From: an uncultured Pseudomonadota bacterium | GTDB taxonomy: Bacteria > UBA10199 > JADFYH01 | Assembly: GCA_964595045.1 (NCBI GenBank) | Contig: CAZQOW010000001.1 | Location: forward strand, 9,183-73,182 | Direction: 5' to 3' | DNA length: 64,000 nt | Part shown: in pieces, positions 8,738 through 37,975 of the stretch | Numbering within the stretch: position 1 is the stretch's first letter | Layout: every line of letters begins with the position of its first letter | Position numbers and translations under genes: made by a program | The notes under the pieces: model-generated | Databases searched by the model: none | What the model was told of the DNA's origin: nothing | The model's input: only the letters and a program-made list of their open reading frames with translations

Positions 8738-8788
8738 AGATTCCTCTCTGGTGAGTAGCTCAGAGGATGATTAACTCCAAAGCTTCGC

Positions 8789-17065: not shown

Positions 17066-17077
17066 GGCGGTAGCCTG
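17066..17077 (+). promoter_or_regulatory. ops-like element GGCGGTAGCCTG (11/12 match to the E. coli RfaH recruitment site GGCGGTAGCGTG), 40 nt upstream of the NusG-paralog start codon
   Basis: Direct reading of 17061-17080 (tcaatGGCGGTAGCCTGctt). Candidate -35/-10 (TTGCGC ... TATAAC) about 45-65 nt further upstream would place the element in the 5' UTR. Confidence 0.5.
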
Positions 17078-17117: not shown

Positions 17118-17597
17118 ATGAATGCTTGGTACGTCATTCGAACGAAACTAAAAAAAGAAAAAGAAGTTATAAACCAGCTCAACAGAGCTCATTATGAACT
17201 CTTCTTTCCCCAAATGAATGCAGTTCCATCTCCTAAACCTCTTTTTCCTTGCTATCTCTTCATCCGAACAGATTTTACCGATCCAAATCATCACCGAATG
17301 GTCCGATACACTCGCGGAGTAAACAGAATTTTGGGAACTGGAACAGATCCTGCCCCTGTTTCGGATATCGTCATTGAAACTTTAAAAATGAAAACGGAAA
17401 ACGGTTTACTGCGGGAACAAGAACTTCTTTTTAAAGAAGGGGACGAGGTAAAGGTGAAAAAGGGAATCTTAAAAGATCTGCAGGGAATGATAGAAAAAAA
17501 TCTTCCGGCTGCAGGTCGGGTAAAAGTATTGTTTAAATGGTTGAACGTAAATATGCGAGCAACCTTGAAATACACTGATTTAGAAAGACATGGTTAA
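17118..17597 (+). CDS. NusG/RfaH-family specialised transcription antiterminator (NGN + KOW domains)
   Basis: NGN start WYVIRTKLKKEKEVINQL, KOW-like FKEGDEVKVKKGILKDLQGMIEK, 159 aa. First gene of a co-directional gene run of about 42 kb, preceded by a 360-nt leader. Confidence 0.7.
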   Translation: MNAWYVIRTKLKKEKEVINQLNRAHYELFFPQMNAVPSPKPLFPCYLFIRTDFTDPNHHRMVRYTRGVNRILGTGTDPAPVSDIVIETLKMKTENGLLREQELLFKEGDEVKVKKGILKDLQGMIEKNLPAAGRVKVLFKWLNVNMRATLKYTDLERHG

Positions 17598-20793: not shown

Positions 20794-21717
20794 ATGAGAA
20801 TTTTGTTTACTGGAGGTTCAAGTTTTTTGGCATTAAATTGGGCTTGTTGTATGAGAGAACAACACGAGATTATACTTTCTACTCATAAAAAAACTATCTT
20901 ATTAAAAGGTGTCAGAACAGTACCTGGAAATTTTGGTTCTTTTGATACCATTCGAGAAAATCTACAAAAAATTCAGCCGGATCTCATTATAAACACTGCC
21001 GCTATTACTAATGTAGATGAATGCGAGCATTATCCAGGAGCAGCTTATGAATTAAATGCTGAATTCACACACCGAATAGCAAAAGCTGCTTTTTTAGAAA
21101 AAATTTCTTTTATTCATATTTCAACTGATCAGCTTTTTGATGGTTCACAATCCTTTATAAAAGAAAATGAAATCCCCTCTCCTTTGAACGTATATGGTAA
21201 AACCAAAGCACTTGCTGAGCTTTATGTATTGCAAGCCGCGCCTACAGCTTTGATTTTGAGAACAAATTTTTTTGCCTGGGGACATAAATTTCGTAATTCT
21301 TTAACTGATTGGATTTTACAAAGTATGAGATCTGATCAAGAGATCAAAATGTTTAAAGATGTTTTTTTCACTCCTATATTGGCTGATAATTTGATTAAAA
21401 CTGCTCATATTCTTCTAGAAGCTAGAGAGAAAGGGATTTTTCATATCGTAGGAGATGAACGAATTTCAAAATATGATTTTGCAATTCGTATTGCAAAAAT
21501 TTTTGGTTTTTCTGAAGGACTTATAATTCCGATTCATCTCGCAGATAAAAAGTTGGCTGCAAGACGCCCTTTTGATATGTCTTTAAATAATCATAAAACC
21601 TGTTCAGCTACTGGTAAATGTCTTGGAGATATTGATATGCAAATCAACGAACTTAAGCTTCAACAAGAGAAAGGTAGAGCCGAAGAGTTAAGAACGGCTG
21701 TGGTAAACAACGTATGA
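20794..21717 (+). CDS. RmlD-like NAD(P)H-dependent sugar reductase (dTDP-4-dehydrorhamnose reductase family)
   Basis: RmlD substrate-binding-domain pattern (ILFTGGSSFLA, NTAAITNVDECE, YGKTKALAE), 307 aa. Glycine motif somewhat degenerate. Confidence 0.55.
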   Translation: MRILFTGGSSFLALNWACCMREQHEIILSTHKKTILLKGVRTVPGNFGSFDTIRENLQKIQPDLIINTAAITNVDECEHYPGAAYELNAEFTHRIAKAAFLEKISFIHISTDQLFDGSQSFIKENEIPSPLNVYGKTKALAELYVLQAAPTALILRTNFFAWGHKFRNSLTDWILQSMRSDQEIKMFKDVFFTPILADNLIKTAHILLEAREKGIFHIVGDERISKYDFAIRIAKIFGFSEGLIIPIHLADKKLAARRPFDMSLNNHKTCSATGKCLGDIDMQINELKLQQEKGRAEELRTAVVNNV

Positions 21718-22706
21718 TTTTAGATGGAAAATCAATCCTGGTAACTGGAGCTACTGGTTCATTTGGAAAACGTTTCATAAAAACTGTTTTAGAAAACCAC
21801 AAACCTAAAAGAATAGTTGCTTTCAGCCGTGATGAGCTCAAACAGTTTGAACTGCAACAGCATTTAAGCTCCCCTATTCTACATTATATGTTAGGTGATG
21901 TTCGCGACAAAGAAAGACTTTATCGTGCAACAGATGGAATAGACTGTGTTGTCCATGCCGCTGCCATGAAACAGGTCCCTTCCTCTGAACATAATCCAAT
22001 GGAAGCAATTAAAACTAATATTATTGGTGCAGAAAATATTATCAATGTTTGTATTGATCAGGGAATTGAACGTGTCATAGCTATGAGCACTGATAAAGCA
22101 GCTAATCCAGTAAATCTTTATGGCGCAACAAAACTATGCTCGGACAAGCTTTTTATAGCAGCAAACGATCTCTCTCGAAAACATCGCACCCATTTTTCAG
22201 TGGTACGCTATGGGAACGTTGTTGGTTCCCGAGGCAGTGTCATCCCTTTTTTCATGAAATGCCGACAAAGTGGCACTTTGCCGATTACAGATGTCCGTAT
22301 GACTCGCTTCTGGATTACTCTTAGTCAAGGAGTACAGTTTGTCATTCGCTCTTTAGAACGAATGAGAGGGGGAGAGCTATTCGTACCAAAAATACCATCC
22401 ATGAATATTATGGATGTCGCTAAAGTCGTAGCCCCAGAGTGTCAGACAGAAATTATAGGAATACGACCTGGAGAAAAGCTTCATGAAATTATGATTACGC
22501 GAGATGATTCAATTCATACTCTTGAATTTGACGACTTTTTTGTTGTTCAACCCTCTGCGGAGTGGTGGAATAAAAAAAATTATAAAGAGGAGTCGGGTGG
22601 CAAACCAGTCCCTGAAGATTTCCAATTTAGCAGTGATCTGAATAATCAATGGATGACAGTTGCAGAGTTAACAGATCTTTTAAAAAGAGAACCAATTGAA
22701 TTATGA
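21714..22706 (+). CDS. pseB: UDP-GlcNAc 4,6-dehydratase/5-epimerase (PseB/FlaA1-type short CapD)
   Basis: KSILVTGATGSFGKRFIKTVL, FSRDELKQ, HAAAMKQVPSSEHNPMEAIKTNIIGAENI, STDKAANPVNLYGATK. Near-collinear with PseB. Followed by a DegT aminotransferase. Confidence 0.8.
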   Translation: MILDGKSILVTGATGSFGKRFIKTVLENHKPKRIVAFSRDELKQFELQQHLSSPILHYMLGDVRDKERLYRATDGIDCVVHAAAMKQVPSSEHNPMEAIKTNIIGAENIINVCIDQGIERVIAMSTDKAANPVNLYGATKLCSDKLFIAANDLSRKHRTHFSVVRYGNVVGSRGSVIPFFMKCRQSGTLPITDVRMTRFWITLSQGVQFVIRSLERMRGGELFVPKIPSMNIMDVAKVVAPECQTEIIGIRPGEKLHEIMITRDDSIHTLEFDDFFVVQPSAEWWNKKNYKEESGGKPVPEDFQFSSDLNNQWMTVAELTDLLKREPIEL

Positions 22707-23941
22707 TTCCCTACGGTCAACACTTTATTGATGAAGAAGATATTCAGGCGGTTGTTGAGCTTTTGCGTACCGGATATCTTACACAAGGTCCAAAAATTAT
22801 TGAGTTTGAAAAAACAGTCGCCCAATATGTAGGGGCCAAATTTGCTGTCGCCACTTCTAGTGGAACAACGGCTCTACATCTTGCTTGTATTGCTGCTGGA
22901 ATTGAACCTGGAGATAATTTAATCACTTCTCCTAATACTTTTGTGGCTAGCTCTAATTGTGCCATTTACGTAGGTGCCATTCCTCACTTTGCTGATATTC
23001 ATCCGGAAACTTTAAATATCGATTCATTCAAACTTAAAGAAAAACTTAATGAACTGGGTCGTGTGAAGGCTATCATACCTGTTCACTTTGCAGGTTTTCC
23101 TTGTGAGATGCCCGTAATCAAAAAAATAGCCGATGATTTGGGCGCCAATATTATCGAAGATGGTGCACACGCTTTTGGCGCATCTTATCCAGATGGGGGG
23201 AAAGTGGGAAATTGTGCCCATTCTCTTATGACGGTTTTCTCTTTTCATCCGGTAAAAATGATTACTTCAGGAGAAGGAGGAATCATTACAACCAATGATG
23301 AGGATTGCTATCGAAACCTTCTACGATTTCGAAGTCACGGCATCAATAAAGGGAATGACCCTTTTATAGATCTTAAGCTAGCATTCGACGAAGGCAAAGT
23401 AAACCCTTGGTATTACGAAATGCAATATTTAGGTTTTAATTACCGTATTACTGATATTCAATGTGCTCTAGCTATTTCTCAAATGAAAAAGCTGGATCAG
23501 TTTGTGATGAAACGTCGTGAAATTGCCATTCGTTACGATGAAGCATTTGCCGATCTTCCTTACTTAATGAAAACGCAAGTGGAAGGAAGAGACTTAAGCA
23601 GTCATCATCTTTATGTAGTCCGTATTCAATTTGAAGAGCTTGGTATTTCTCGGCGTGAATTAATGGCAAAACTAGCCAGTTTGGGAGTTGGGAGCCACGT
23701 TCATTACATTCCGGTACCAATGCAACCTTACTATCGAGAACATTACCAAATTCCGGAAAGAGATTACCGCGAGGCTAATCAATACTATCAAGAAGCTCTC
23801 ACACTACCAATTTTTCCCTCTATGAAAGAGGAAGAGATCAGTAACGTCATCAACTCTGTTAAATCTATTTGTCTGCATGAATATAAAAAATCTCTCAATA
23901 CTGATCGTCGGCTGCGGCTCGATCGGCAAGCGACACGCTAA
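22703..23941 (+). CDS. pseC: DegT/DnrJ/EryC1-family aminotransferase (PseC-like, UDP-4-keto-6-deoxy sugar 4-aminotransferase). 3' end probably about 70 nt shorter than the ORF.
   Basis: SSGTTALHLA, FSFHPVKMITSGEGG (Lys-PLP region), 412-aa ORF. The last ~22 aa overlap the next gene and look like read-through. Confidence 0.75.
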   Translation: MIPYGQHFIDEEDIQAVVELLRTGYLTQGPKIIEFEKTVAQYVGAKFAVATSSGTTALHLACIAAGIEPGDNLITSPNTFVASSNCAIYVGAIPHFADIHPETLNIDSFKLKEKLNELGRVKAIIPVHFAGFPCEMPVIKKIADDLGANIIEDGAHAFGASYPDGGKVGNCAHSLMTVFSFHPVKMITSGEGGIITTNDEDCYRNLLRFRSHGINKGNDPFIDLKLAFDEGKVNPWYYEMQYLGFNYRITDIQCALAISQMKKLDQFVMKRREIAIRYDEAFADLPYLMKTQVEGRDLSSHHLYVVRIQFEELGISRRELMAKLASLGVGSHVHYIPVPMQPYYREHYQIPERDYREANQYYQEALTLPIFPSMKEEEISNVINSVKSICLHEYKKSLNTDRRLRLDRQATR

Positions 23942-24881
23942 AAACCTTCTTCAATGCGGAGTCTACAAAATTTGTGGTGTCGACCCTAACGTTCAACGAC
24001 GGGAGGAAATGTGTTCAATCACAAACACTCAAAGTTTTGCTTCCATGGAAGAAGCTTTGATTAACGATTCTTTTGATGCCGCTTTTATCACATCGCCCAC
24101 TTCTTCGCATATTACAGATGCCTTATATGCTGCCAACTTTAACTGTCATCTCTTTATTGAAAAACCTTTATCGCACAGTCTTGAGCAGCTAAATGAGCTG
24201 ATCGAAATTGTTCGGAGTAGAAGAATTAAGGGACATCTTGGAAGCAATTGGAAGTTTCATCCTTCTTTCAAACGGATAAAAAAAATTCTCGAAAATAACG
24301 AAATTGGAAAACTGCTGTCGGTTCGTTGCCAAGCAGGTCAATATCTTCCCGATTGGCATCCTTGGGAAGATTATCGCAAAGGATACTCAGCCAATAAAAA
24401 AATGGGGGGGGGAATCCTTCTAGATTGTCATGAGTTTGATTATTTAACCTGGTTTGTGGGTGAACCTGAAAAAATTGCCTGTTTTACCGATAAAACAAGT
24501 TCTTTAGAAATTGACACAGAAGATGTCGCTGAAGTGATTCTGAAATTCAAAAACGGTTCTATCGGTGAAATTCATGTAGATTATATTCAACGTGCATACC
24601 AAAGAAATTATGAATTCTTTGGTGAAGAAGGCTCTCTGTTTTGGAATTTCAATTCAAAAAAAGTTCGCCTCTATTTAGCTCGTGATAAGTCTTGGCAAGA
24701 ATGGCAAGAACCGGAAGGTTATGATTTAAATCAAATGTATCTTGATCAAACCTCTCACTTTTTAAATGTATTAGCGGATGAAGAAAAGCCTATTACTCCA
24801 CTGGATCGTGGACGTGATGTACTTTCATGGATCTTAGCGGCAAAACAAGCTTCGGAAAACAACACAGTAATAAGGATATAA
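23877..24881 (+). CDS. Gfo/Idh/MocA-family NAD(P)-dependent oxidoreductase. Contains a G9 homopolymer at 24406-24414.
   Basis: N-terminal LSILIVGCGSIGKRHAKNL Rossmann, EKPL motif (LFIEKPLSHS), 334 aa. Confidence 0.75.
   Translation: MNIKNLSILIVGCGSIGKRHAKNLLQCGVYKICGVDPNVQRREEMCSITNTQSFASMEEALINDSFDAAFITSPTSSHITDALYAANFNCHLFIEKPLSHSLEQLNELIEIVRSRRIKGHLGSNWKFHPSFKRIKKILENNEIGKLLSVRCQAGQYLPDWHPWEDYRKGYSANKKMGGGILLDCHEFDYLTWFVGEPEKIACFTDKTSSLEIDTEDVAEVILKFKNGSIGEIHVDYIQRAYQRNYEFFGEEGSLFWNFNSKKVRLYLARDKSWQEWQEPEGYDLNQMYLDQTSHFLNVLADEEKPITPLDRGRDVLSWILAAKQASENNTVIRI
24406..24414 (+). repeat. G9 homopolymeric tract inside the Gfo/Idh/MocA oxidoreductase CDS (candidate slipped-strand phase-variation site)
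   Basis: aaaaaaATGGGGGGGGGaatcc encodes K-K-M-G-G-G-I in frame. It is the only G-run of 8 or more noticed in the window. Confidence 0.6.
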
Positions 24882-24882
24882 T

Positions 24883-25890
24883 ATGAACTCACTGAAGATC
24901 ATTGCTGAAGTAGCGCAAGGCTATGAAGGAAAACCCGAGCTCGCTGAAATGCTTGTCAAAGGAGCGGCAGCAGCAGGGGCAGACGCAGTCAAGTTCCAGC
25001 TTATTTATGCAGATGAATTGGCAACCCCTGATTATAAACACTTTCAACTTTTTCAATCTCTAGAAATGCAAGATGCTGTTTGGTTGAAAATTGCCTCTCT
25101 CGCTCAAGAAAAAAACATATCTCTCTTTTTGGATGTCTACGGTGCAAAGAGTTTAAAGCTTGCAGAACATATGCAAGTGTCTGGTGTCAAAATCCATAGC
25201 ACTGACATGCAAAATCTCGATCTACTTAAATCGATATCTAAATCAAAAATTCCCCTTATTTTTCTATCGATCAGCGGTTGTCTTCGAGAAGAAGTTCATC
25301 AAGCGATCGAGATCATGGGAGAAAAAAACATTGTTCTTCTCCATGGCTTTCAAAGCTATCCGACACCGATTGAAGCAAATCAAATCAAACGATTATCAAC
25401 GCTCATGACTCAGTTTGGAAACCGAAAAAATATTGGCTACGGGTTCGCAGATCATGTGCCTGTCGAAGATGAACTTCGCTTTACCCTCGCGGCTGTAGCG
25501 ATTGGTTTCGGAGTGAGCTACTTAGAAAAGCATTTGACACTTTCCAAAGTAATGAAACTAGAAGATCACGAGTCCGCCCTCTCTCCGGATGAGTTTTTAC
25601 GCTTTGTTCGCTTCATGAGGCAGTGCCACCAAGCTGTAGGCGAAACTGATCCTCTCAAGGGTGAATTTACAACGAATACTTCAGAACTAGACTACCGACG
25701 AATGACTCATAAACATGTCGTCACCGCACGAAAATTAGAATCCGGGACCCTCTTAACACCGGAGCTTTTGACCTTAAAAAGAACTGCCGCAGCCAATCCA
25801 CTCTATGATATTAAAAGCATCTATGGAAAACGCCTCACTAAAAGTCTGGAGCAGGGGGTAGCCGTTACCATTGAAGTATTGGAGACCTAA
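24883..25890 (+). CDS. NeuB-family nonulosonic-acid synthase paralog (SpsE-like; AQGYEG variant of the AGxNHNG loop) with C-terminal SAF domain
   Basis: IIAEVAQGYEGKPELAEMLVKGAAAAGADAVKFQ aligns with the NeuB N-terminus. C-terminal SAF-like HVVTARKLESGTLLTPELL, 335 aa. Confidence 0.65.
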   Translation: MNSLKIIAEVAQGYEGKPELAEMLVKGAAAAGADAVKFQLIYADELATPDYKHFQLFQSLEMQDAVWLKIASLAQEKNISLFLDVYGAKSLKLAEHMQVSGVKIHSTDMQNLDLLKSISKSKIPLIFLSISGCLREEVHQAIEIMGEKNIVLLHGFQSYPTPIEANQIKRLSTLMTQFGNRKNIGYGFADHVPVEDELRFTLAAVAIGFGVSYLEKHLTLSKVMKLEDHESALSPDEFLRFVRFMRQCHQAVGETDPLKGEFTTNTSELDYRRMTHKHVVTARKLESGTLLTPELLTLKRTAAANPLYDIKSIYGKRLTKSLEQGVAVTIEVLET

Positions 25891-25892
25891 TC

Positions 25893-26639
25893 ATGAAACG
25901 TCGACTTGTCGCCTCTCTTGCCTGCCGTAATAATGGATCACGTCTTTATGGCAAGCCACTTCAAAGAATTTTAGAGAATGTTACTATTCTTGACCAAATC
26001 ATCACTGCACTTAAAACATTTCCAGTCATCGATGAAATTGTTCTTGGTGTTTCTGAGGGGATCGACAATGCAGTTTTCGTCGATATTGCTCATGCACACA
26101 ACATTTCGTATATTTATGGAGACCCTACAGATGTTCTCATGAGGCTCATTCAATGTGGAAGATCCGGTAAGGCAACTGATGTTTTTAGAATCACCACCGA
26201 ATGCCCTTGGTTTGCTTATGATTTGTTAAATATAGTTTGGGAAAAACATATCAAACAAAGCAATGATATTACTGTTTGCGATCGCTTGCCAGAAGGGCTT
26301 CACTTTGAAATTTATACTCTAGATGCATTGGAAAAATCCCATCAAAGAGGAACTTCGAAAGACCGTTCGGAGTTCTGCTCTAATTATCCTCGAATGAATC
26401 CAAAAGAATTCAAAATCGATGTAATATTGCCACCCGAAAAATTTCAACGGATGGATCTCCGCGTCACTGTTGATTATCCTGAAGATTTAATCCTCTGCCG
26501 TGAAATTGCAAAAGCCCATCTTGATTACATGCCGCTCATCTCGGTTGAACAGATTATTAGCTTTCTCGATTCAAGACCCGACTTGAAAGATCTCACAAAA
26601 TCTTTTGTCGTGCCCAAACCTCTCTGGGATGTTTTATAA
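25893..26639 (+). CDS. Cytidylyltransferase, SpsF/PseF-like (CTP_transf_3 family), candidate CMP-NulO synthetase
   Basis: ASLACRNNGSRLYGKPLQ matches the (A)RxxSxRLxGK motif, 248 aa. Immediately downstream of a NeuB-like gene. Confidence 0.6.
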   Translation: MKRRLVASLACRNNGSRLYGKPLQRILENVTILDQIITALKTFPVIDEIVLGVSEGIDNAVFVDIAHAHNISYIYGDPTDVLMRLIQCGRSGKATDVFRITTECPWFAYDLLNIVWEKHIKQSNDITVCDRLPEGLHFEIYTLDALEKSHQRGTSKDRSEFCSNYPRMNPKEFKIDVILPPEKFQRMDLRVTVDYPEDLILCREIAKAHLDYMPLISVEQIISFLDSRPDLKDLTKSFVVPKPLWDVL

Positions 26640-26656: not shown

Positions 26657-27709
26657 ATGAACTATTGGGCGCAAAAAAAAGTTTTTAATTTCCCTTTGCC
26701 TGATCGGCTGGATTTAACCTTGCTGCTCAGAGGAATCCTGGCAATTATGGTTGTCTGGTGGCATACGAATGGTTATCGTATCACTAATACTCCGATTGCC
26801 TTCCTAAATATTGCAGGACGAATCTGCGTTTGGGTCTTTTTCATTTTGTCTGGATATACTATTGGTTATGCTTTTGAGAAAAAACGATATCAATTTAATA
26901 CAAAAGAAATTTTCTATTTCTACAAAAATCGACTGGTCCGAATCTATCCCCTTTTGCTTTTCATTACTGTTTTATCATTTTTCATAAATACCCATTTTAG
27001 CCAAGATCCTATCCCGTGGACTAGTTCCCTATTTATGAAAGAATTTTTGATGCTTCAATGGAATCATACCTATTAACTCGTCGGTGTCTTTTGGGCCTTG
27101 GGAGTCAAAATCCAGTTCTATCTCATCGCACCGCTGTTAGCTTTTATCCTCCAAAAAACGGGAAAGTCATTCTCCATGATTGCCCTTACATTTGCTTTCT
27201 TTTTATTCATACCCACTCTGGCAAAGTTTATTTCTCACTATTCGTGGGTCAATCGATCACTGACAGGAAATTTATCTCATTTTTATGCCGGATTTATTTT
27301 AGATTATTTAATAGACAAAATCGCTCCCTCAAAACTTGATACAATATCACCCATCCTTATTATGCCTCGCCTCTCTTATTATTTTATATTCCACTTTATG
27401 GATGTATCAAAAAAACCAGGTTTGTTTTGGGCTTCAGGACCTCTGTCAGTCGATTTAGCAGGAGTCGGACTTTTAACAGCACACGTTTTATGGGATAGAG
27501 AAAAAATTTCTTTAAGTGGGCTAGCATTCATTCTTTCAACCTTAGAGGTATTTTCCTATGGAATCTATGCCTGGCACGGACTTTTGGTGCAATACTCAGA
27601 TTACTGTGAATCTCATTTTTTCGTTACTCTTTTAGCAACAATCATTCTCTCTATTCTTTCTTATTTTTTGATCGAAAAACCGCTATTGTGTTATCGTCGT
27701 TCCACTTAA
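26657..27709 (+). pseudogene. Acyltransferase-3 (OafA-like O-acyltransferase) gene interrupted by a single in-frame TAA at 27074-27076
   Basis: ORFs 26657-27076 and 27098-27709 are in the same frame (both start positions are 2 mod 3). Across the stop the sequence reads ...QWNHTY*LVGVFWALGVKIQFYLIAPLL, i.e. the conserved acyltransferase-3 W.L..E.QFYL motif. The joined product would be 351 aa and multi-TM. Confidence 0.6.
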
Positions 27710-27715
27710 AAAGTT

Positions 27716-29002
27716 ATGATCCACTATACTTCTTCTGAAAAATTACTTGAGCAAGCTCTAAAAACCATTCCGCTCGGTTCTCAAACTTTTAGTAAAAGCA
27801 AAACTCAATTTCCACTGGGTGTCTCCCCATTTTTCTTGAAAAAAGGACGAGGGTCCCATGTATGGGACGTTGATAGAAATGAGTACATCGATTTTATTAA
27901 CGGGCTGGCATCGATTACTCTCGGCTATTTAGATCCTGATGTGACTTCTGCAGTACAAGAGCAATTGCAAGAGGGAGTTATTTTTAGCCTTCCTCATCCC
28001 ATTGAAATTAAGGTTGCGGAAAAAATTTCTGAGATGATTCCTTGTGCTGAGATGGTTCGTTTTGCCAAAAACGGTTCCGATGCGACCGCAGGAGCAGTTC
28101 GGCTCGCCCGAGCTTACACAAACCGCGATCATATTGCTGTTTGCGGCTACCATGGTTGGCAAGATTGGTATATAGGATCAACCACCCGAAACCGTGGAGT
28201 TCCAAAAGCAACCAGGAAGCTGACGCATACTTTCATTTATAACGACATCGAATCTCTTCATCAGTTATTTTCGAATTACCCCGACTTGATCGCCGCTGTT
28301 ATTCTCGAACCGATGAATGTGACAGATCCATTGCCAGGCTTCTTAGAAGAGGTAAAAACACTCACCCATCGCCATGGTACCCTGTTAATCTTTGATGAAA
28401 CGATCACCGGTTTTCGCTTTGCAAATGGAGGGGCACAAGAGCTCTTTAACGTCGTTCCAGATCTGGCGACTTTTGGCAAAGGCTTGGCAAATGGTTATCC
28501 TCTTTCTGCCATCGCTGGACGTGCTGAAATCATGAAACTGATGGAAGAAATCTTTTTTTCATTCACTTTCGGGGGAGAAACATTATCACTCGCAGCGGCC
28601 CTCGCTGTGATGAAGAAATTACAGCAACAACCGGTCATTAAGCATCTTTGGCAGCAAGGAGAAAAACTCATTCATGGGCTTCGGGAAATCATCCAAAAAA
28701 ACAGACTCGAAGAATTTTTAAGCGTTTCCGGAAAACCGTGTTGGTCATTTCTACTCATCAAAGATACCCCAAAATGCAGCTCATCTGAAATCAAGACTCT
28801 TTTGCTGCAAGAAGTTTTCGCCCGAGGGATTCTGACAGTCGGCACGCACAACATGAGTTATGCTCACTCAAATTCAGATATTAGACGGCTAATGGTTGTC
28901 TACGAAGAAGTGATACCGATTCTAAAAAAAGCAATCGATGGTTTCCCTCTTTCAGATCTTTTACGATGCCATCCTCTCGAGCCACTTTTTAAAGTACGAT
29001 GA
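27716..29002 (+). CDS. Class III PLP aminotransferase, glutamate-1-semialdehyde aminomutase-like
   Basis: FAKNGSDATAGAVRLARAYT, LIFDETITGFRF, TFGKGLANGYP, 428 aa. Confidence 0.75.
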   Translation: MIHYTSSEKLLEQALKTIPLGSQTFSKSKTQFPLGVSPFFLKKGRGSHVWDVDRNEYIDFINGLASITLGYLDPDVTSAVQEQLQEGVIFSLPHPIEIKVAEKISEMIPCAEMVRFAKNGSDATAGAVRLARAYTNRDHIAVCGYHGWQDWYIGSTTRNRGVPKATRKLTHTFIYNDIESLHQLFSNYPDLIAAVILEPMNVTDPLPGFLEEVKTLTHRHGTLLIFDETITGFRFANGGAQELFNVVPDLATFGKGLANGYPLSAIAGRAEIMKLMEEIFFSFTFGGETLSLAAALAVMKKLQQQPVIKHLWQQGEKLIHGLREIIQKNRLEEFLSVSGKPCWSFLLIKDTPKCSSSEIKTLLLQEVFARGILTVGTHNMSYAHSNSDIRRLMVVYEEVIPILKKAIDGFPLSDLLRCHPLEPLFKVR

Positions 29003-29478
29003 CAAAACTTACTTTAAGACTCGCCTCAGGCGATGATGCAAAACTCTTGTGGGAATGGGCGAATGATCCAGAGACGCGCAAATTCTCCTTTTCGAGCGCG
29101 CCAATTGCTTGGCAAACTCATCAAACATGGCTCGCATCGAAATTGAGCAACCCATCTTATTTTTTTCGAATCGCTCTTGATGCCTCTGAAGTACCGATCG
29201 GATATATTCGTTGTGAAAAAAAAGAAAATAGAGGTCTAATTTCAGTCAGTGTCAGCCCACTCATGCGGAGAGAAGGATATGGCAGCAGAATCATTCAATT
29301 GGCAACTCAAGTGATCTTTAAAGAAATGAATGTCGAAATGATTCATGCTTATATTAAAAAAGAGAACCAAGCTTCTCAAAAGACTTTCGAAAAAGCCGGC
29401 TTCCAATACGAAGGGATTGTCGTTCTGGAACAGCATCAAGCTCTTCAATTTACATATCAAAGGAATCAGACCTTATGA
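28999..29478 (+). CDS. pseH: GNAT N-acetyltransferase (PseH-like)
   Basis: 159 aa GNAT fold (RREGYGSRII..., KENQASQKTFEKAGF). Sits between an aminotransferase and pseI. Confidence 0.55.
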   Translation: MTKLTLRLASGDDAKLLWEWANDPETRKFSFSSAPIAWQTHQTWLASKLSNPSYFFRIALDASEVPIGYIRCEKKENRGLISVSVSPLMRREGYGSRIIQLATQVIFKEMNVEMIHAYIKKENQASQKTFEKAGFQYEGIVVLEQHQALQFTYQRNQTL

Positions 29479-30524
29479 ATGAAATCACTATTGGTAAAAA
29501 AAAGATTGGGCCTGCTCATCCGGTCTATATCATTGCAGAAATCTCGGCAAATCATCATCAAAATTTCGATCAGGCGGTAGAGTTAATCAAAGCCTCTAAA
29601 GAAGCGGGGGTCGATGCTGTCAAATTACAAACCTATACCGCCGAAACGATCACACTCGATTCAAATAAAAAGCATTTTCAGATTAAAGGGAAAACCCTTT
29701 GGGATGGGCAGCGACTTTATGATCTATATAAAGATGCATATACTCCCTGGGAATGGCAACCGCGTTTAAAAGTAATTGCAGAACAGATCGGTCTCGATCT
29801 TTTTTCTTCTGCTTTCGATTCAACCGCGGTCGATTTTTTAGAAGGAATGAATATTCCGGCGCACAAGATAAGCTCATTTGAGATTGTTGATCTTCCACTC
29901 ATTGAAAAAATGGCAAAAACCAAAAAACCGCTTATCATTTCAACAGGAATGGCAACTTTAGAAGAAATTTCTGAAGCAGTGAGCACCGCTCGTTCTGCCG
30001 GGGCTGATCAAATCGCTCTTCTCAAATGTACCAGCGCGTATCCCGCTCCACCCGACTCGATGAGGCTCCGAACAATTCCGCATTTGTCAGAAACCTTTCA
30101 AATTCCAATAGGCCTTTCCGACCATACGCTGGGAGTCATTGTTCCAGTCGCCGCAGTCGCGATGGGGGCGTGTATTATTGAAAAACATATCACTTTATCC
30201 ACAAATATTTCGGGTCCTGACAGTGCCTTCTCACTCGAACCGGATGAATTCAAACAAATGGTGGAAAGTGTGCGAATAACCGAACAAGCTTTGGGAAAAG
30301 TTCATTATGGAAGAAGTGAACAAGAGGAAAAAAACCATCTTTTTCGGCGATCACTCTTTATCGTGAAAGATGTGAAGTTGGGTGAAACTCTTACAGAAGA
30401 GAATATTCGCTCTATTCGACCGGGGCATGGCCTTTCTCCAAAGCATTTTAAAGAAATCATCGGACGAAAGGCGACTCAAGATATTCCCGCCGGAACCCCT
30501 CTCGACTGGAGCCTTGTTCAATGA
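29475..30524 (+). CDS. pseI: Pseudaminic acid synthase (NeuB family with C-terminal SAF domain)
   Basis: YIIAEISANHHQNFDQAVELIKASKEAGVDAVKLQTY, the PseI-type N-terminal signature. SAF domain present (LFIVKDVKLGETLTEENIRSIRPG), 349 aa. Followed by a PseG-like gene. Confidence 0.8.
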   Translation: MNEITIGKKKIGPAHPVYIIAEISANHHQNFDQAVELIKASKEAGVDAVKLQTYTAETITLDSNKKHFQIKGKTLWDGQRLYDLYKDAYTPWEWQPRLKVIAEQIGLDLFSSAFDSTAVDFLEGMNIPAHKISSFEIVDLPLIEKMAKTKKPLIISTGMATLEEISEAVSTARSAGADQIALLKCTSAYPAPPDSMRLRTIPHLSETFQIPIGLSDHTLGVIVPVAAVAMGACIIEKHITLSTNISGPDSAFSLEPDEFKQMVESVRITEQALGKVHYGRSEQEEKNHLFRRSLFIVKDVKLGETLTEENIRSIRPGHGLSPKHFKEIIGRKATQDIPAGTPLDWSLVQ

Positions 30525-31624
30525 ACATTACTATCCGTGTTGATGCATCTTCTCTCATGGGCTCAGGACACGTGATGCGTTGTATTGCACTGGGGGATAC
30601 TTTCGCCGAGAACGGATCAGAAGTATCTTTTATCTGCCGCGAGCTTGAAGGGCATCTTTGCGACTTCATGGAAAACCGAGGATTAAAGGTCTATCGTCTA
30701 CCCCCTCCAAAAAAAACATTATCGAAAGAGATCGGTTCTATACGTCATAAAGACTGGTTAGGAGTCCCTTTGGAAGAAGACTGCATGCAAACCGAGGAGA
30801 TTTTAAGAACGATTCCAACACCCGATTGGTTAATTCTCGATCATTATGCGCTCGATGTTAAATGGGAAAACTTTGTACGGCGGTATGTTAGAAAAATTCT
30901 GGTGATCGATGATCTCGCTGATAGAGCACATGACTGCGACATCCTTCTCGACCAAAACGTCTCTGAGTCACATGCGAATATCTACCAACAGCTCACTCCA
31001 AAGAATTGCGAAATCATACTCGGTCCTCGCTACTCTCTTCTACGTTCAGAATTTCGTAAAAAGCGTTCAACGATGCGCCAACGAGATGGAAAAATAAAAA
31101 GAATTCTTATCTCATTCGGAATGATTGATCAAACGAATGAAACTTTTAAAACGCTCAAAGTAATCGAATCTCTTCAAGAAAAAAACTTCAGTTGTGACGT
31201 TGTTGTCGGTCAACAAAATTGGCACAAAAACGAGATCGAGAATTTTTGCAAACAGTTGCCACACACCCGTTTTCACTTTCAAGTTGACTATCTCTCTGAA
31301 TTAATTGCTGCTGCGGATCTAGCGATTGGAGCATCCGGATCTACCCATTGGGAACGTTGTTGTCTCGGCTTACCTTCTCTTCTTATTTCCGTCGCTTTCA
31401 ATCAGGAATCAATTGGTAAAACATCTCAAGAAAATGGGACTGGTATTTATCTCGGCACTTCCGAAGAAGTAACCTCTGAAAGAATCGCAAATGAGATAAA
31501 AAACCTTTTTACTGATTCAAAGCGAATGCTTGACTTATCTCGTAATGCCAAAGCGATCGTAGACGGTGAAGGAGCTTTACGTGTTTATGATAGAATGTTA
31601 AAAAAAATAACTACAAAATTATAA
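30521..31624 (+). CDS. pseG: PseG-like UDP-sugar hydrolase (GT-B, UDP-2,4-diacetamido-2,4,6-trideoxy-L-altropyranose hydrolase family)
   Basis: N-terminal ITIRVDASSLMGSGHVMRCIALGDTF, the PseG S..GxGH.mR motif, 367 aa. Confidence 0.7.
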   Translation: MNITIRVDASSLMGSGHVMRCIALGDTFAENGSEVSFICRELEGHLCDFMENRGLKVYRLPPPKKTLSKEIGSIRHKDWLGVPLEEDCMQTEEILRTIPTPDWLILDHYALDVKWENFVRRYVRKILVIDDLADRAHDCDILLDQNVSESHANIYQQLTPKNCEIILGPRYSLLRSEFRKKRSTMRQRDGKIKRILISFGMIDQTNETFKTLKVIESLQEKNFSCDVVVGQQNWHKNEIENFCKQLPHTRFHFQVDYLSELIAAADLAIGASGSTHWERCCLGLPSLLISVAFNQESIGKTSQENGTGIYLGTSEEVTSERIANEIKNLFTDSKRMLDLSRNAKAIVDGEGALRVYDRMLKKITTKL

Positions 31625-31635: not shown

Positions 31636-32193
31636 ATGATAACAAATGATCACTTAATATTCAGAGGCGGCCATCTTCGTGTTTTAAGAGAAGAAGATGT
31701 TCATCAAAGATACGTAGATGGGCTCAATAACTCCCTCGTTAATCGCTATCTTGGTAACGTAAAAAAAACGACGCAAACTCTAGAAACTGTCTCTCAATTT
31801 GTTAAACAAAACCTACAAGATCCACATGGTATCTTGTTTGGAGTTTGGCCAGACAACTCAAAGAACCACTGTGGCACCGTTCGATTACATAGTATTGATG
31901 ATTATCATTTAACAGCGAATATTGGGATTTGTATTTTCGAAACTGACTTTTGGGGACAGGGCATCGGAACCAAATCTATTCAGATCATTACGCAATGGGG
32001 AATAGACACTTTAAAACTTCGCTGGATTGAATCAGGAATTTATATCGACAATAAAGCATCGCAAAAAGCATTCTTAGCTGCCAACTACAAATGGATATGT
32101 GATTTAGAAGGGAAGCATCTCTTCGATGGCTTACCAACTATTACTCGTATTTATGCAGCCCGCAATAATTATTGTGAAAAAAAAACATCCTAA
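31636..32193 (+). CDS. GNAT-family N-acetyltransferase (RimL/PseH-like), second copy
   Basis: 185 aa. LRVLREEDVHQRYVDGLNN then GQGIGTKSIQIITQWGID, an acetyl-CoA binding pattern. Confidence 0.55.
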   Translation: MITNDHLIFRGGHLRVLREEDVHQRYVDGLNNSLVNRYLGNVKKTTQTLETVSQFVKQNLQDPHGILFGVWPDNSKNHCGTVRLHSIDDYHLTANIGICIFETDFWGQGIGTKSIQIITQWGIDTLKLRWIESGIYIDNKASQKAFLAANYKWICDLEGKHLFDGLPTITRIYAARNNYCEKKTS

Positions 32194-34069
32194 AGCTCTT
32201 ATCGTATTACGACTACATCCTTTAAATTTCCCTTTGATTTTAATTGGAAGTTTTTTTTTCAATATTGTCTATTGGAAATCAGAAAAAATTCCAGAATCGT
32301 GGCTTAAGAGATTCGAAGTCATAGATCCTGAAGATTACTTTACATACGAAGAATGGATAGAGGTCACTGCTCAAGCCCAGAAGAGTTGGAAAATAAAGAT
32401 TGAACCATGGAACGACAAAACCTCTTTTTTATGGAAACAAATTAATATTACGGTTGATTTCAGTAATACATGGCTACAATGGCTTGGAATATACTTTGAA
32501 GAGTACTTTTTTTTTCTCCATTTATCTAAACGTTGGATCGAGAAAGCTATTAGCATTAAAGCAGTCAAATTCGCTGATTTGATGATATTTGACTTAGCCT
32601 CCGACTTAAAATACATAGTTTCAGCTTCTTCCCTCAGCATCATAAAAATTTTCTACTATCTCGATTTGGCATGGCAATGGTCTCTTGCTTTAATATTTTG
32701 CTTTCGCCAACTTGGAAGGCTTATTCAAAGGAGAGACAAATCTGTAAATACTAGAGAAACATACCGTTACCTATGGACTGGAATCAGCCCACAAGAAGCA
32801 GCTAGCGAACCGAACCAACTCGATTTTGCATTTCTTGTTGAAAGAGGAATAATAAACTCTAAAGATTGTCTTTTCATCCTAGCCAAACAACCATCAAATA
32901 CGACTATCAGTTATCTTAGTAAAAGAAATATCCATTGGACCACCACTCAAGACATTGGGAAATGGCTTAACATTCGAGAACGAGTTCTAGCACTTCTTGG
33001 ACTTTTCAAAACTCTATTGCATGGATGTTTTTTGAGAAAGAAACAGATTCATACCCCCCTTATCTTGCAGTTTTGCTTTAATACCCAATCATGGATTTTT
33101 TTCATAAAAAAAATCAAACCGGAAATCTATTTTTCTACTGTGAGTGAATCCTGGCCTGAACGTCCTGAGGTGTCTGTTATAAACGCTTTAGGTGTCAATA
33201 CAGTGAACTGGTTTTATTCGGCAAATATATTTTCGTATTCTCAGACAAATCCTGCCTTTGAAGATCTCGGTATCTTGAGAAGTATTTCTGTCGCACGAGA
33301 AATATGGGTTTGGAACGAAACAGTCGCTCAGTGGTTTAATTTAAGAAATATTCAACCAAAACCTGATCAACCAAAAATCAAAGTCACAGGACCCATAATG
33401 TGCGGAAATTCCCAATGGCTAAAAAAAACCCCAGCTGATGTTCGAAGCTCTTATGGAATTAAATCAGAAAAAACGACAAAATTTATTGCCGTATTTGATG
33501 TGCCTACCATTACTAGAGCATACCGGATTAAAATAGGTCATGGCCCATCTCTTTACCCCTTAAAGATGCTCGAACAATTTTTTGATGATCTCTGTAACCT
33601 CTTAGATGCTTTCGAAAATGTAAACTTGATTATAAAACCTAAAAGATCATTAGAAGATCCCCAAAGAGACTATTCAAAAGGAATGTGGCGCCTCATAAAT
33701 CCGACGGGACATTATCAAGAAAGAAAAAAAATCACTCTTCTCCCACATAATATTGATCCGTATTTACCGATCGCCATGTCAGACTTCTGTGTAGGTCTCC
33801 CCTTTACCTCTCCAGTTCTTGTCGGTCTAAGCAGTGGCAGAGATGGTCTTTTTCATGACCCACTTTCTTGTGTAAATTATTTTTATCCTAAGGAAATAAC
33901 CCCCTTGATTACTCATGGAAAAAAAGAGTTTTTAGAACGAATCGATCAATGGATGAAGGGGAACAAAATCAAAATACGCAACCAATCAGTTGCAGAAGCT
34001 TACTGTGGCTCTTCGGTTGATCCTGCAATACAATTTGCAACTCTTGCCTTATCAAACCCCAGTAATTAA
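32126..34069 (+). CDS. Uncharacterized large protein with GT-B-like C-terminal half. Candidate CMP-NulO/Kdo-type transferase. Start uncertain.
   Basis: C-terminal NLIIKPKRS...KITLLPHNIDPYLPIAMSDFCVGLPFTSPVLVGLSSGRDGLF looks like a GT-B nucleotide-sugar-binding domain. The 5' end overlaps the GNAT gene by 68 nt in another frame, so the true start is likely downstream. Confidence 0.4.
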   Translation: MAYQLLLVFMQPAIIIVKKKHPKALIVLRLHPLNFPLILIGSFFFNIVYWKSEKIPESWLKRFEVIDPEDYFTYEEWIEVTAQAQKSWKIKIEPWNDKTSFLWKQINITVDFSNTWLQWLGIYFEEYFFFLHLSKRWIEKAISIKAVKFADLMIFDLASDLKYIVSASSLSIIKIFYYLDLAWQWSLALIFCFRQLGRLIQRRDKSVNTRETYRYLWTGISPQEAASEPNQLDFAFLVERGIINSKDCLFILAKQPSNTTISYLSKRNIHWTTTQDIGKWLNIRERVLALLGLFKTLLHGCFLRKKQIHTPLILQFCFNTQSWIFFIKKIKPEIYFSTVSESWPERPEVSVINALGVNTVNWFYSANIFSYSQTNPAFEDLGILRSISVAREIWVWNETVAQWFNLRNIQPKPDQPKIKVTGPIMCGNSQWLKKTPADVRSSYGIKSEKTTKFIAVFDVPTITRAYRIKIGHGPSLYPLKMLEQFFDDLCNLLDAFENVNLIIKPKRSLEDPQRDYSKGMWRLINPTGHYQERKKITLLPHNIDPYLPIAMSDFCVGLPFTSPVLVGLSSGRDGLFHDPLSCVNYFYPKEITPLITHGKKEFLERIDQWMKGNKIKIRNQSVAEAYCGSSVDPAIQFATLALSNPSN

Positions 34070-34074: not shown

Positions 34075-35829
34075 TTGGAAAAAAATGTGTCTACCTTTAA
34101 AATTAAATCCTCTCTAGCTAAATTTAAAAAATGGCTGTCCATCAAACATCTTAAAAAAACTTATCTCTTTTTAGGGTCTCGTGTCATTTACTATCTGAGT
34201 GGAAGCGGAATTGCTGGACTACTCCTTTTTTTAACTGAAGCAGCATTTGCACTCGGGTTACAACTTTTTCTTCTAGCTCTCGGAATTGCATCTCCTCAAA
34301 CTGTCAAGCTTCCAAACTGGCTAACTGGATTGGGATTTTATCAGGTGATTGGACTTGTCTTTTCGATCGGTGTATTTCGAGCGTTACTACTCTGGTTTCA
34401 AACTTATCTGCAAATGGCCTCTATGGAGGAGCTTAAATATCTTATTCGAACTCGAATATTATCTTGGGCTTTTCATGCTAAGTCAGTAAGTGCTACCCAG
34501 GTAACCTCGATCTTTAATGAGAGATGTAATATAGCAGCAGGTGCTATAGGAAATTTTCAAGGTTTAATTGTAAAAGTAATCGCCGGGATCTGCATCCTCA
34601 TCAATCTGTTCATTCTTTCCCCTTTCACAACCATAGTCACTAGTATCGCTTTTCTCTGTTTAGGACTAATTGCCACTCAGATGAGCCGTAAAATTACGAA
34701 TGCTGGCTCTAATCTTAAAAAGGAATGGGATAGAACAAATCGAGGACTTCTTAATAGTATTAAAAATTTACTGCTCATGCAAATCTATGGAACACAATCC
34801 ATGGAAGAAGCGAAAGCGCAGAAAAGTCTAAGAACCTATCGTGATCATATTATGAATCATTTTTATAAAGCTGGTTTCAATTCTGCTATTCCACAGATTG
34901 GAGGAATTGCAATGATCTGCGCCATTGCCCTTACTTACAGATCCCACTACGGAATTGCCCCGGCTGCTTTGGTTTCTTATCTTTATCTTTTTTTGCGACT
35001 AGCTCAAAATTTTTCAGAAAGTGTTCACAATGGCTCAAACCTACTGTTTTATTGGCCTCAATTTATTGAGATTGGACAATGGTGGAATCAAACTCTTTCA
35101 TCGGATGAGCATGACCCATTACCAGTCGTACAAAAATATGATTTTCAAATTAAAAATATTTCTCAACCTTTAGGTTGGATGATCAAAAATGTTCAATATA
35201 GCTACCCCGCTACAAACCACTCTGCTATTAAGCAATTTAATCTACATTTAGCCCCAGGTAAAACTCTTGTGATTACTGGTCCTTCTGGCTCAGGGAAAAG
35301 CACTATTTTGGGATTAATGCTCGGAATTCTTTCTCCTCAAATAGGAGAAGTAAATATTTTATTTGGAGAAACTTCGTATCCCATAGAGAGTGTAAAACCA
35401 ATCCTTCTAAAAAATATTGGCTATGTAGGAGCTGAAAGCTTTCTTTTGGAAGGAACAATTTATGATAATATTATTTATGGATTGAGTACTATCCCTACCG
35501 AAGCTGAAATTCATGAGGCACTCAAACTATCTGAATGTGATTTTATTTACAACTTTCCCAAACAGCTCAATCATAAAATCACAGAACAAGGTCATGGGTT
35601 ATCTGCGGGGCAAAAGCAACGACTTTCTCTAGCAAGAGCATTTCTTAGAAAACCAAAAATTCTATTTCTAGATGAAGCGACTGCAAATCTAGATTCAAAA
35701 ACTGAAATGAAGTTGGTGACCACTCTAGGTCTTTCAAAAGGTAAAATGACAATTATTGCTGCTACGCATCGAAGTGCAATGCTTACCATCGCTGATGTTC
35801 AATTAAAGTTAGATAAGAGTGATGAATAG
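34075..35829 (+). CDS. ABC exporter, fused permease + ATPase (MsbA/PglK-type half-transporter). Candidate lipid-linked oligosaccharide flippase.
   Basis: Six predicted TM helices. Walker A GPSGSGKST, ABC signature LSAGQKQRLSLARAF, Walker B ILFLDEATANLD, 584 aa. Confidence 0.85.
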   Translation: MEKNVSTFKIKSSLAKFKKWLSIKHLKKTYLFLGSRVIYYLSGSGIAGLLLFLTEAAFALGLQLFLLALGIASPQTVKLPNWLTGLGFYQVIGLVFSIGVFRALLLWFQTYLQMASMEELKYLIRTRILSWAFHAKSVSATQVTSIFNERCNIAAGAIGNFQGLIVKVIAGICILINLFILSPFTTIVTSIAFLCLGLIATQMSRKITNAGSNLKKEWDRTNRGLLNSIKNLLLMQIYGTQSMEEAKAQKSLRTYRDHIMNHFYKAGFNSAIPQIGGIAMICAIALTYRSHYGIAPAALVSYLYLFLRLAQNFSESVHNGSNLLFYWPQFIEIGQWWNQTLSSDEHDPLPVVQKYDFQIKNISQPLGWMIKNVQYSYPATNHSAIKQFNLHLAPGKTLVITGPSGSGKSTILGLMLGILSPQIGEVNILFGETSYPIESVKPILLKNIGYVGAESFLLEGTIYDNIIYGLSTIPTEAEIHEALKLSECDFIYNFPKQLNHKITEQGHGLSAGQKQRLSLARAFLRKPKILFLDEATANLDSKTEMKLVTTLGLSKGKMTIIAATHRSAMLTIADVQLKLDKSDE

Positions 35830-35993: not shown

Positions 35994-36818
35994 ATGCCCA
36001 ACAAAATAAAAAAAACCTATATTATCGCCGACATTTCTTCTAATCACATGGGTAATATGGCAATAGCCCAAGCAATGATTGATGTAGCTGCCAATATTGG
36101 TATTGACTGCGTCAAGTTTCAATCTTGGAAGGCAGGCTCACTCCGTAAAGATTTTCCAGATTACAATGCCACCTACAACCGCCACAAAAAAACCGAGCTT
36201 TCCGAAGATGACCATTTACTGTTGATAGAACATTGTAAAAAAAATAGCATCGACTTCCTCACTACCTGCTTTGATCTAAATCGTATTGATTTTTTAGCTT
36301 CTCTTGGAATCGACACAATCAAAGTTGCCAGTCCTGATTGTGGAAGTATTCGGCTTCTTGAATCTTTAATGAAACATTTTAAAAAACTGATTATTTCTAC
36401 GGGCATGACGCAGGATACAGATGTTCAAAAAGCAATTGAAGTGACACGAGGTCATGATGTTGTTTTTCTTCATTGTGTATCGCTCTATCCTACCCCCCCT
36501 GAAAAAGTAAATATGAAGCGATTAGACTGGCTTAAATCAATGGGGGTTCGTGTCGGTTACAGTGATCACACCATGGGAGTGGATGCTGGGAAGCTTGCCA
36601 TATCTCGCGGAGCAGAGATTTTGGAAAAACATTATACTCTCTCCCGTGACTTGCCTGGTAAAGATCAAGCAATGTCTATGATGCCAGAAGAGTTGGCAGA
36701 GCTCTGCCGTTTTGCGAAAGTGGTTGAGCGGATGGATGGGGTATCGCAACCAGAACTCTCTGAAGATGAAAAAAAACTTCGGGCAATTTATGTTGGAAAA
36801 TGGGGAAATAACCGATGA
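35994..36818 (+). CDS. Short NeuB-family nonulosonic-acid synthase (TIM-barrel only, no SAF domain)
   Basis: YIIADISSNHMGNMAIAQAMIDVAANIGIDCVKFQ and GYSDHTMG, 274 aa. Ends before where a SAF domain would begin. Overlaps neuC. Confidence 0.7.
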   Translation: MPNKIKKTYIIADISSNHMGNMAIAQAMIDVAANIGIDCVKFQSWKAGSLRKDFPDYNATYNRHKKTELSEDDHLLLIEHCKKNSIDFLTTCFDLNRIDFLASLGIDTIKVASPDCGSIRLLESLMKHFKKLIISTGMTQDTDVQKAIEVTRGHDVVFLHCVSLYPTPPEKVNMKRLDWLKSMGVRVGYSDHTMGVDAGKLAISRGAEILEKHYTLSRDLPGKDQAMSMMPEELAELCRFAKVVERMDGVSQPELSEDEKKLRAIYVGKWGNNR

Positions 36819-37975
36819 GTGATAAAAAAAGAAAAATTTGCATTGTGGTTGCCAGTCGTGCCAACTATGGAAGAATTAAATCTGTCTTAAAGGCTATTCA
36901 AAAACACCCCTCTCTTGAACTTCAGTTGATCGTCGGCGCCTCTGCCCTTTTACATCGATTTGGAAGTGTTATTGATATTATTCGAAAAGACGGCTTCGAA
37001 CCTAATGCAACTCTCTATTCTATTGTCGAAGGAGAAAATCCAACAACGATGGCTAAATCAACTGGGATGGGCATTATAGATCTAGCAACACAATTCGAAA
37101 ATTTAAAACCTGACGTTGTGCTAACAGTGGCTGATCGATTTGAAACCATGTCGACCGCCATTGCCGCTTCCTATATGAATATTGCTCTCGCGCACACACA
37201 AGGTGGAGAAGTCACAGGCTCACTCGATGAAAGTGTAAGACATGCAATCACTAAACTTGCCCATATTCACTTTCCTGCAACTCCTATCGCTGAGCAAAGA
37301 CTTTTAAAAATGGGAGAGGAACCTGAAAGAATTCGAATGACAGGTTGCCCCTCTTTAGATCCTATTTGTGATATCGATCTTAAACTTCCCGAAGATATTT
37401 TTCGTCGATATGGAGGGGTCGGGGCCGACATCAAAACCAACTCAGAGTACATCGTGGTTCTTCAACATCCAGTGACAACTGAATATGGATCCGGATTAGC
37501 ACAAATTAACGAAACACTGAAGGCTGTCTCTCAACTCAAAAAACCAACGATATGGCTCTGGCCAAATGTTGACGCAGGATCTGACGATATCTCCAAGGGG
37601 CTTCGAACTTTTCGTGAACGGGAAAAACCAGACTATATCCATTTTTTCCGTAACTTCTCAGTTGAGGATTATGCTCGTTTAATCTCTAACTGCATCTGTC
37701 TCATCGGAAACTCTTCCAGTGGGATACGAGAAGGAGCATTACTCGGTACGCCCGTAGTAAATATAGGATCACGCCAGCAAGGTCGAGAACGTGCCCAAAA
37801 TGTATTGGACGCCGATTATAAAGCCGAAGAGATTCTCAACAAGACAAAAATTCAAATTGATCATGGAAAGTATAAATCTAATCCGCTTTATGGAGATGGT
37901 CATGCAGGTATAAGAATTGCGGATAATTTGGCAACAATGTCACTTCACAATCTCCAGAAACGTCTAACCTATTAA
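36815..37975 (+). CDS. neuC: UDP-N-acetylglucosamine 2-epimerase (hydrolysing), NeuC/LegG type
   Basis: ICIVVASRANYGRIKSVLKAI, DRFETMSTAIAASYMNIALAHTQGGEVTGSLDESVRHAITKLAHIHF, 386 aa. Confidence 0.8.
   Translation: MSDKKRKICIVVASRANYGRIKSVLKAIQKHPSLELQLIVGASALLHRFGSVIDIIRKDGFEPNATLYSIVEGENPTTMAKSTGMGIIDLATQFENLKPDVVLTVADRFETMSTAIAASYMNIALAHTQGGEVTGSLDESVRHAITKLAHIHFPATPIAEQRLLKMGEEPERIRMTGCPSLDPICDIDLKLPEDIFRRYGGVGADIKTNSEYIVVLQHPVTTEYGSGLAQINETLKAVSQLKKPTIWLWPNVDAGSDDISKGLRTFREREKPDYIHFFRNFSVEDYARLISNCICLIGNSSSGIREGALLGTPVVNIGSRQQGRERAQNVLDADYKAEEILNKTKIQIDHGKYKSNPLYGDGHAGIRIADNLATMSLHNLQKRLTY

Follow-up and report, generated by a model that had tools for sequence, protein, structure and literature searches.

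O-acyl changes alter antibody and phage recognition, as seen for lag1 of Legionella, oac of Shigella and oafA/B of Salmonella. Lag1 8-O-acetylates the nonulosonic sugar legionaminic acid, and lag1 mutants are devoid of that acetyl group. Acyltransferase-3 (AT3) proteins have been described as having ten transmembrane helices (TMH), with TMH3 and TMH4 flanking a re-entrant loop (PMC9833829). The motifs R/K-X10-H, FFxxSG and RxxR have proved essential to both OafA and Oac (PMC7448272), and Trp138 and Glu143 of OafB are among the residues important for function (PMC9833829). A published fold unification places AT3 and HGSNAT in one superfamily (PMC12423673). AT3 O-acetyltransferase genes are known to be mutated or frameshifted in particular strains, as in lag1 mutants and in oafA of Haemophilus influenzae Rd (PMC9558356). 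The latter gene is frameshifted in this reference strain and is intact and phase-variable in others (PMC9558356).

Here, we analyzed a 64,000-nt stretch of DNA (the window) in which an AT3 gene, located within a pseudaminic acid (Pse) cassette, is interrupted by one in-frame TAA codon. The reading that we favor, with a probability of about 0.86, is that this is a genuine single-base nonsense pseudogene of an AT3-only O-acyltransferase and that glycan O-acylation has presumably been lost with it. The features of the gene and of the surrounding cassette are collected in Table 1.

Table 1. Features of the interrupted AT3 gene and of the surrounding Pse cassette (positions in the window)
Feature	Position	Strand	Remarks
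PseB	21714-22706	+	NCBIfam 520.6 bits vs cut-off 407.75
PseC	22703-23941	+	NCBIfam 485.9 bits vs cut-off 423.5
GFO/IDH/MocA oxidoreductase	23877-24881	+	Pfam tag on identical Logan locus
NeuB-like synthase	24883-25890	+	below both equivalog cut-offs
Cytidylyltransferase-like protein	25893-26639	+	weak spiro-SPASM match only; no Pfam tag
5' AT3 fragment	26657-27076	+	139 codons + premature TAA; helices 1-3 and short re-entrant helix (predicted)
Premature in-frame TAA, codon 140	27074-27076	+	loop between re-entrant helix and helix 4
3' AT3 remnant	27077-27709	+	210 codons + natural TAA (27707-27709); predicted helices 4-10
AAA codon, K151	27107-27109	+	Glu in 98/107 homologues, Lys in none
GAG codon, E297	27545-27547	+	Gly in 106/107 homologues; L-G-x-x-S-Y-G-I-Y-A-W-H block
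Glutamate-1-semialdehyde-aminomutase-like aminotransferase	27716-29002	+	starts 7 nt after AT3 stop
PseH-like GNAT	28999-29478	+	59.7 bits, below cut-off of 93.1
PseI	29475-30524	+	NCBIfam 491.4 bits vs cut-off 340.25
PseG	30521-31624	+	NCBIfam 306.5 bits vs cut-off 153.55

A first-pass annotation had described two open reading frames (ORFs) in one frame, split by TAA and seven sense codons, as an acyltransferase-3 gene, and both the sequence and its translation bear out this arrangement. The first ORF starts with the ATG at 26657 and is closed by the premature TAA. The seven sense codons (27077-27097) separate this TAA from the second listed ORF, which runs in the same frame from a TTG at 27098 to the natural stop. 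Translation across the premature stop reads ...LMLQWNHTY-stop-LVGVFWALGVKIQFYLIAPLL... The 210 codons located 3' of the premature TAA contain no further stop, for which we roughly estimate a chance of 1e-6 in random sequence of like composition, and no indel, frameshift or second stop was observed over the 350 codons. When compared to the PF01757 profile (cut-off, 31 bits), the N-terminal half matched profile positions 6 to 112 with 58.1 bits and the C-terminal half matched positions 132 to 319 with 42.4 bits, each exceeding the cut-off on its own. The joined sequence matched end to end as a single stretch (positions 6 to 319 of 326; 102.6 bits), in agreement with the family assignment made earlier. 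Since the halves cover consecutive stretches of the profile, the two ORFs are successive parts of one domain and one gene and not a chance juxtaposition. The joined product has 350 aa; the 351 aa given in the first-pass annotation included the terminal stop, but the normal length and the roughly ten transmembrane segments attributed to the product were correct. Similarly, a conserved block does straddle the stop, as had been claimed, if the wider block QWNHxYxLxGVFW is considered, but the motif W-x-L-x-x-E-x-Q-F-Y (W146 to Y155) lies wholly downstream. The alternative "E/K" that had been proposed within this motif is not a family variant, as the homologues carry E (98 of 107) and never K.

The position of the lesion in the fold was examined in a confident AlphaFold2 model of the joined sequence, built on 13 homologues (pLDDT 81.8; pTM 0.84). 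We observed ten long helices and a short helix (residues 123 to 130), which reproduces the published ten-helix architecture, including the re-entrant loop that joins helices 3 and 4. Helices H20-37, H54-74, H82-115 and H123-130 belong to the N-terminal part, and helices H142-168 to H321-349 belong to the C-terminal part. The stop at codon 140 falls in the loop at 131 to 141, directly before helix 4. The best fold matches in the PDB were HGSNAT and GWT1 (probability, 0.84 to 0.98; query-normalized TM-score, 0.38 to 0.47), at only 12 to 16% identity and E-values of 0.1 to 0.5, and no AT3 chain was detectable in the PDB by sequence search. These matches fit the published unification of the AT3 and HGSNAT folds (PMC12423673). 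All of the motifs described for the N-terminal helices are present, namely, R-X10-H in helix 1, which holds the catalytic His (R25 and H36, kept in 103/104 and 105/106 homologues, respectively), FFxxSG in helix 2 (F61, F62, I, L, S65 and G66) and RxxR in helix 3 (R92, L, V and R95). Of the conserved Trp...Glu pair at the start of helix 4, W146 is kept and the Glu is replaced by K151; judging by the W-x4-E spacing, this residue would be the equivalent of Glu143 in OafB. Moreover, a functional AT3 needs an uninterrupted frame, and this frame is broken at codon 140.

We then compared the two sides of the stop at 32 alignment positions that were conserved to at least 80% in 107 full-length homologues. 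Upstream of the stop, all 18 conserved positions are retained, including R25/H36, F61 to G66 and R92/R95. Of the 14 that lie downstream, 12 are unchanged, and the exceptions, E151K and G297E, both alter the charge. This distribution of deviant sites (2/14 downstream versus 0/18 upstream) does not by itself reach statistical significance. The two substitutions fit with relaxed constraint or with a loss of function that was already under way. A bulk decay signal after the stop was not detected, since the C-half/N-half ratio of identity to homologues (0.798) was the same as the norm of the family (0.805 ± 0.056). The open downstream frame and the ordinary level of divergence thus suggest that the stop is young on the timescale that distant comparisons resolve. 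A run of eight A residues at 26673-26680 (codons 6 to 8) is in frame at present and might be a slippage site; it is unrelated to the TAA. It is the only such tract in the gene, and the simple-sequence repeat that would be expected at the lesion in a phase-variable AT3 gene is not found.

Intact relatives of the gene are distant. A word-indexed search of 5.8 billion proteins returned a best identity of 38%, and the best match in GTDB species genomes had 36%. When 1.84 billion cluster representatives were searched exhaustively with HMMER, no intact orthologue above 50% identity emerged; the two halves from the window itself (100%) were followed by a match with 44% and by others with at most 42%. 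Neither a degenerate DNA pattern spanning the stop nor a back-translated peptide scan gave a match in JGI metagenomes. Since the searched collections held no orthologue above 50% identity, the ancestral codon and the timing of the change are inferred and not observed. Across 23 related gene copies aligned by tblastn, the column of the stop always held a sense codon, of variable identity, and never a stop. Codons for Glu (GAA), Gln, Ser, Leu, Lys and Tyr, all of which occur in this column, are one substitution away from TAA. A comparison with related strains had been proposed previously as a check for a sense codon; the sense codon is found in all 23 copies, all of them distant relatives, and no close relative was found. 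The converse observation, the same stop in relatives as a sign of a true two-protein arrangement, was made in 0 of 23 copies.

The nearest intact homologue, P0020 (358 aa; Logan assembly of SRR22388044, locus L049), shares 44% identity with the AT3 of the window over 345 residues (302 bits). It carries GAG (Glu) in the column of the stop, with identical flanks (HTY_LVG), so that the corresponding stretches read HTY-E-LVG and FWALG-IE-IQFY. P0020 has no interruption, unlike the gene in the window, and carries E151 and G297. It also differs in its surroundings, as it adjoins a WecA-like gene without a Pse cassette around it, whereas the AT3 of the window lies inside such a cassette. Positions 1 to 1479 of this locus align with 49488-51262 of the window (inositol-monophosphatase-family gene, 69% amino acid identity; epimerase gene, 60%), with the order kept and divergence thereafter. 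The contig may come from a related organism whose glycan locus differs from that of the window and has the AT3 gene beside a WecA-like gene. Among the 24 copies compared, 3 are disrupted, each at a different site. In a Bdellovibrionaceae MAG (L007), we observed an in-frame stop at 8247-8249, near the equivalent of residue 90, which might be an error of the MAG assembly. In the isolate genome of Polynucleobacter bastaniensis AP-Basta-1000A-D1 (L018), a frameshift follows VWIFF and leaves ORFs at 8034-8210 and 8296-9039. Since these lesions differ in place and type, they point to recurrent loss of a dispensable accessory gene and not to a conserved split or recoding site.

The location of the gene within a pseudaminic acid module, as proposed in the first-pass annotation, was confirmed by PseB, PseC, PseI and PseG equivalogs above their NCBIfam cut-offs. 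The plus-strand genes at 21714-26639 belong to the same operon as the AT3 gene. No PseF equivalog match was listed; cytidylyltransferase-like candidates are found at 41043-41756 and 45272-45991 (both matching Pfam CTP_transf_3) and at 25893-26639. In addition to these three cytidylyltransferase-like genes, the locus encodes a UDP-GlcNAc 2-epimerase (36815-37975) and three NeuB-family synthases, namely, PseI, the sub-cut-off protein at 24883-25890 and a protein of 274 aa with a NeuB domain only (35994-36818). This gene content suggests more than one nonulosonic acid pathway or an unusual Pse derivative.

A wider look at the operon showed an ops-like element, GGCGGTAGCCTG, at 17066-17077 (+), which fits GGCGGTAGNNTG and lies 41 nt upstream of a gene for an RfaH/NusG paralogue. 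This RfaH-like gene (17118-17597, +) matched TIGR01955 with 88.8 bits, below the cut-off of 144.5. With up to two mismatches, the window contains 4 ops-like matches versus 0.74 expected. The element and the RfaH-like gene head a one-strand polysaccharide operon of about 42 kb, which also encodes a radical-SAM/SPASM protein (46034-47176) and, at 32126-34069 and 34075-35829, a polysaccharide biosynthesis protein with a PFTS motif, whose score falls just short of the cut-off, and a fused ABC exporter. This content could point to an unusually modified glycan that depends on an ABC transporter. The left flank (3648-9682, -) carries the housekeeping genes argF, argD, argB, hslU, hslV and xerC and has a GC content of about 42%, versus about 36 to 38% in much of the glycan locus. 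An identical ArgF was found in the unrelated run SRR13287419.

The AT3 subfamily was found in synteny with PseB, PseC, NeuB-like, CTP-transferase-like, GSA-aminotransferase-like, PseG and PseI genes in at least nine loci from different phyla, and further partial cases lie on short contigs. The cassette is spread over Proteobacteria, Bacteroidota, Acidobacteriota and Planctomycetota, and hosts with an intact AT3 gene include a gutless-worm gamma-symbiont, Methylotenera, Methylobacter, Zoogloeaceae, Rhodocyclaceae, Isosphaeraceae, Acidobacteriota and Bacteroidota. AT3 is a regular and normally intact part of this extended cassette. The cassette was seen in loci L003, L006, L011, L013, L015, L016, L017, L018, L020, L027 and L029 and, beyond PseB/C/G/I, it always includes an RmlD-like reductase, AT3, a second NeuB-like protein, a cytidylyltransferase-like protein and a GSA-aminomutase-like aminotransferase. 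The regular occurrence of AT3 inside the Pse cassette supports the notion that a Pse-containing glycan would be its substrate.

TAA ends 32 of the 55 long ORFs in the window and is the commonest true terminator there. An altered genetic code was rejected on this ground. The window contains no detectable tRNA gene, and hence no suppressor tRNA, and it gave no rRNA or Rfam match. RNA structure in the 100 nt from the stop was no better than in shuffled sequences (z = 0.02), and scans for promoters and terminators around the AT3 gene likewise gave nothing above shuffles. The first possible downstream starts, TTG 27098 and ATG 27176, are not preceded by a convincing Shine-Dalgarno sequence, which makes a useful C-terminal fragment unlikely. 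The TTG falls within the conserved W-x-L motif, and the ATG comes after most of helix 4; the gene caller used on the Logan contig began the 3' remnant at the equivalent of ATG 27176, giving 177 aa.

If codon 140 was changed to TAA by a single-base substitution, translation would end after 139 residues, leaving helices 1 to 3 and the re-entrant loop with R-X10-H, FFxxSG and RxxR. Since the acyl-CoA pore is built from 10 helices, of which such a fragment would lack 7, transmembrane acyl transfer would not take place, and the 210 codons at the 3' end would be an untranslated or barely translated remnant. The Pse-containing surface glycan of the locus would consequently be made without O-acyl decoration. 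The approximately 630 nt left without translation might, in principle, have a polar effect on the pse genes that follow; one may speculate that antitermination of the ops-like/RfaH-like type limits this effect.

Of the options left by the first-pass annotation, a nonsense mutation is the one favored by the reproducible TAA and by the sense codons of the relatives. The second option, a sequencing or assembly error at 27074-27076 in a gene that is intact, appears extremely improbable. TAA is one base away from several sense codons, and the window possibly comes from a metagenome-derived or draft assembly. However, a 1.2-kb contig in the Logan assembly of SRR23447884 and 13.6 kb of a 41-kb contig of SRR23447887 (Logan) are both 100% identical to the window, TAA included. 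Since the TAA is identical in these two run-level assemblies, an assembler artefact is excluded; the two runs and the deposited assembly possibly go back to one study, or even to the same DNA, so that a systematic library artefact is excluded less firmly than an assembler artefact. Sequencing error is unlikely, as the lesion is a substitution in nonrepetitive sequence, outside any homopolymer or repeat, and substitution errors are rare in a consensus. Moreover, repair of the stop would still leave the gene with K at a position that is never K and with E at a position that is Gly in nearly all homologues. These same two residues could instead mean that the gene was already dead or neofunctionalized via E151K and/or G297E and that the TAA came second. 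This variant is compatible with the nonsense pseudogene, and we consider it possible though doubtful. The substitutions are radical: the residues that they replace are kept in 98/107 and 106/107 homologues, respectively, and the first of these corresponds to OafB Glu143, which was reported to be important. On the other hand, the 350 codons contain no additional lesion, and the C/N divergence ratio is normal.

Functional recoding by low-level readthrough of TAA, or a functional split into an N-terminal fragment and a C-terminal fragment re-initiated at TTG 27098 or ATG 27176, is very unlikely. The stop is followed by C, which makes for relatively weak termination in Escherichia coli, the frame is fully open beyond it and the N-terminal fragment keeps all three N-terminal catalytic motifs; with a start-capable TTG 21 nt after the stop, termination-reinitiation would be physically possible. 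Yet none of the 23 related copies is stopped or split at this position, and the two other lesions lie elsewhere and are of other kinds. TAA is the main real terminator here, and neither a structured RNA downstream nor a suppressor tRNA in the window was found. A start at the TTG, which has no Shine-Dalgarno sequence, or at the ATG would cost the protein some or all of helix 4, together with the invariant W146, and E151K and G297E affect near-invariant residues. The recoding option of the first-pass annotation is thus disfavored, as is its sequencing-error option. In its broader form, in which N- and C-terminal fragments make up a two-piece AT3 or readthrough of TAA tunes O-acylation of the Pse glycan, the idea is highly improbable. 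A weaker version of this idea is likelier, namely, that AT3, as an accessory gene in a pan-phylum Pse cassette, is repeatedly targeted by on/off selection, in view of the three disrupted copies with their different sites.

The single-base nonsense pseudogene that we favor is an ordinary pseudogenized AT3 of a well-known family, and nothing in it challenges current understanding. If this reading is true, the strain or population would produce its Pse-containing surface glycan with one O-acyl decoration missing. Annotations should join the two ORFs into a single entry flagged as a pseudogene and not call two hypothetical or "acyltransferase" proteins. In addition, the AT3 subfamily is a near-constant companion of the extended Pse cassette (PseB, RmlD-like, PseC, NeuB-like, cytidylyltransferase-like, GSA-aminomutase-like, PseG and PseI), which provides a testable hint to its substrate.

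Among known systems, human HGSNAT and fungal GWT1 of the TmAT superfamily have solved structures and resemble the model of the AT3 of the window in fold. Oac from Shigella flexneri and the AT3 domains of OafA/OafB from Salmonella, all of them O-antigen acetyltransferases, share with it PF01757, the R/K-X10-H, FFxxSG and RxxR motifs and the predicted 10-helix fold with its re-entrant loop. The AT3 of the window has no fused SGNH domain, like Oac and unlike OafA/B, and it differs from OafB by the Lys in place of the Glu143 equivalent and by the stop that interrupts the gene. The oafA gene of H. influenzae Rd is likewise of the surface-glycan O-acetyltransferase type and disrupted in one sequenced strain; its lesion is a frameshift in a phase-variable gene, whereas the lesion described here is a base substitution without a repeat and is not readily reversible. 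The closest functional analogy is probably lag1 of L. pneumophila. Lag1 is also an AT3-only protein of about 350 aa, a likeness in architecture, and it acts on legionaminic acid of the O-antigen, whereas the sugar of the locus described here is pseudaminic acid.
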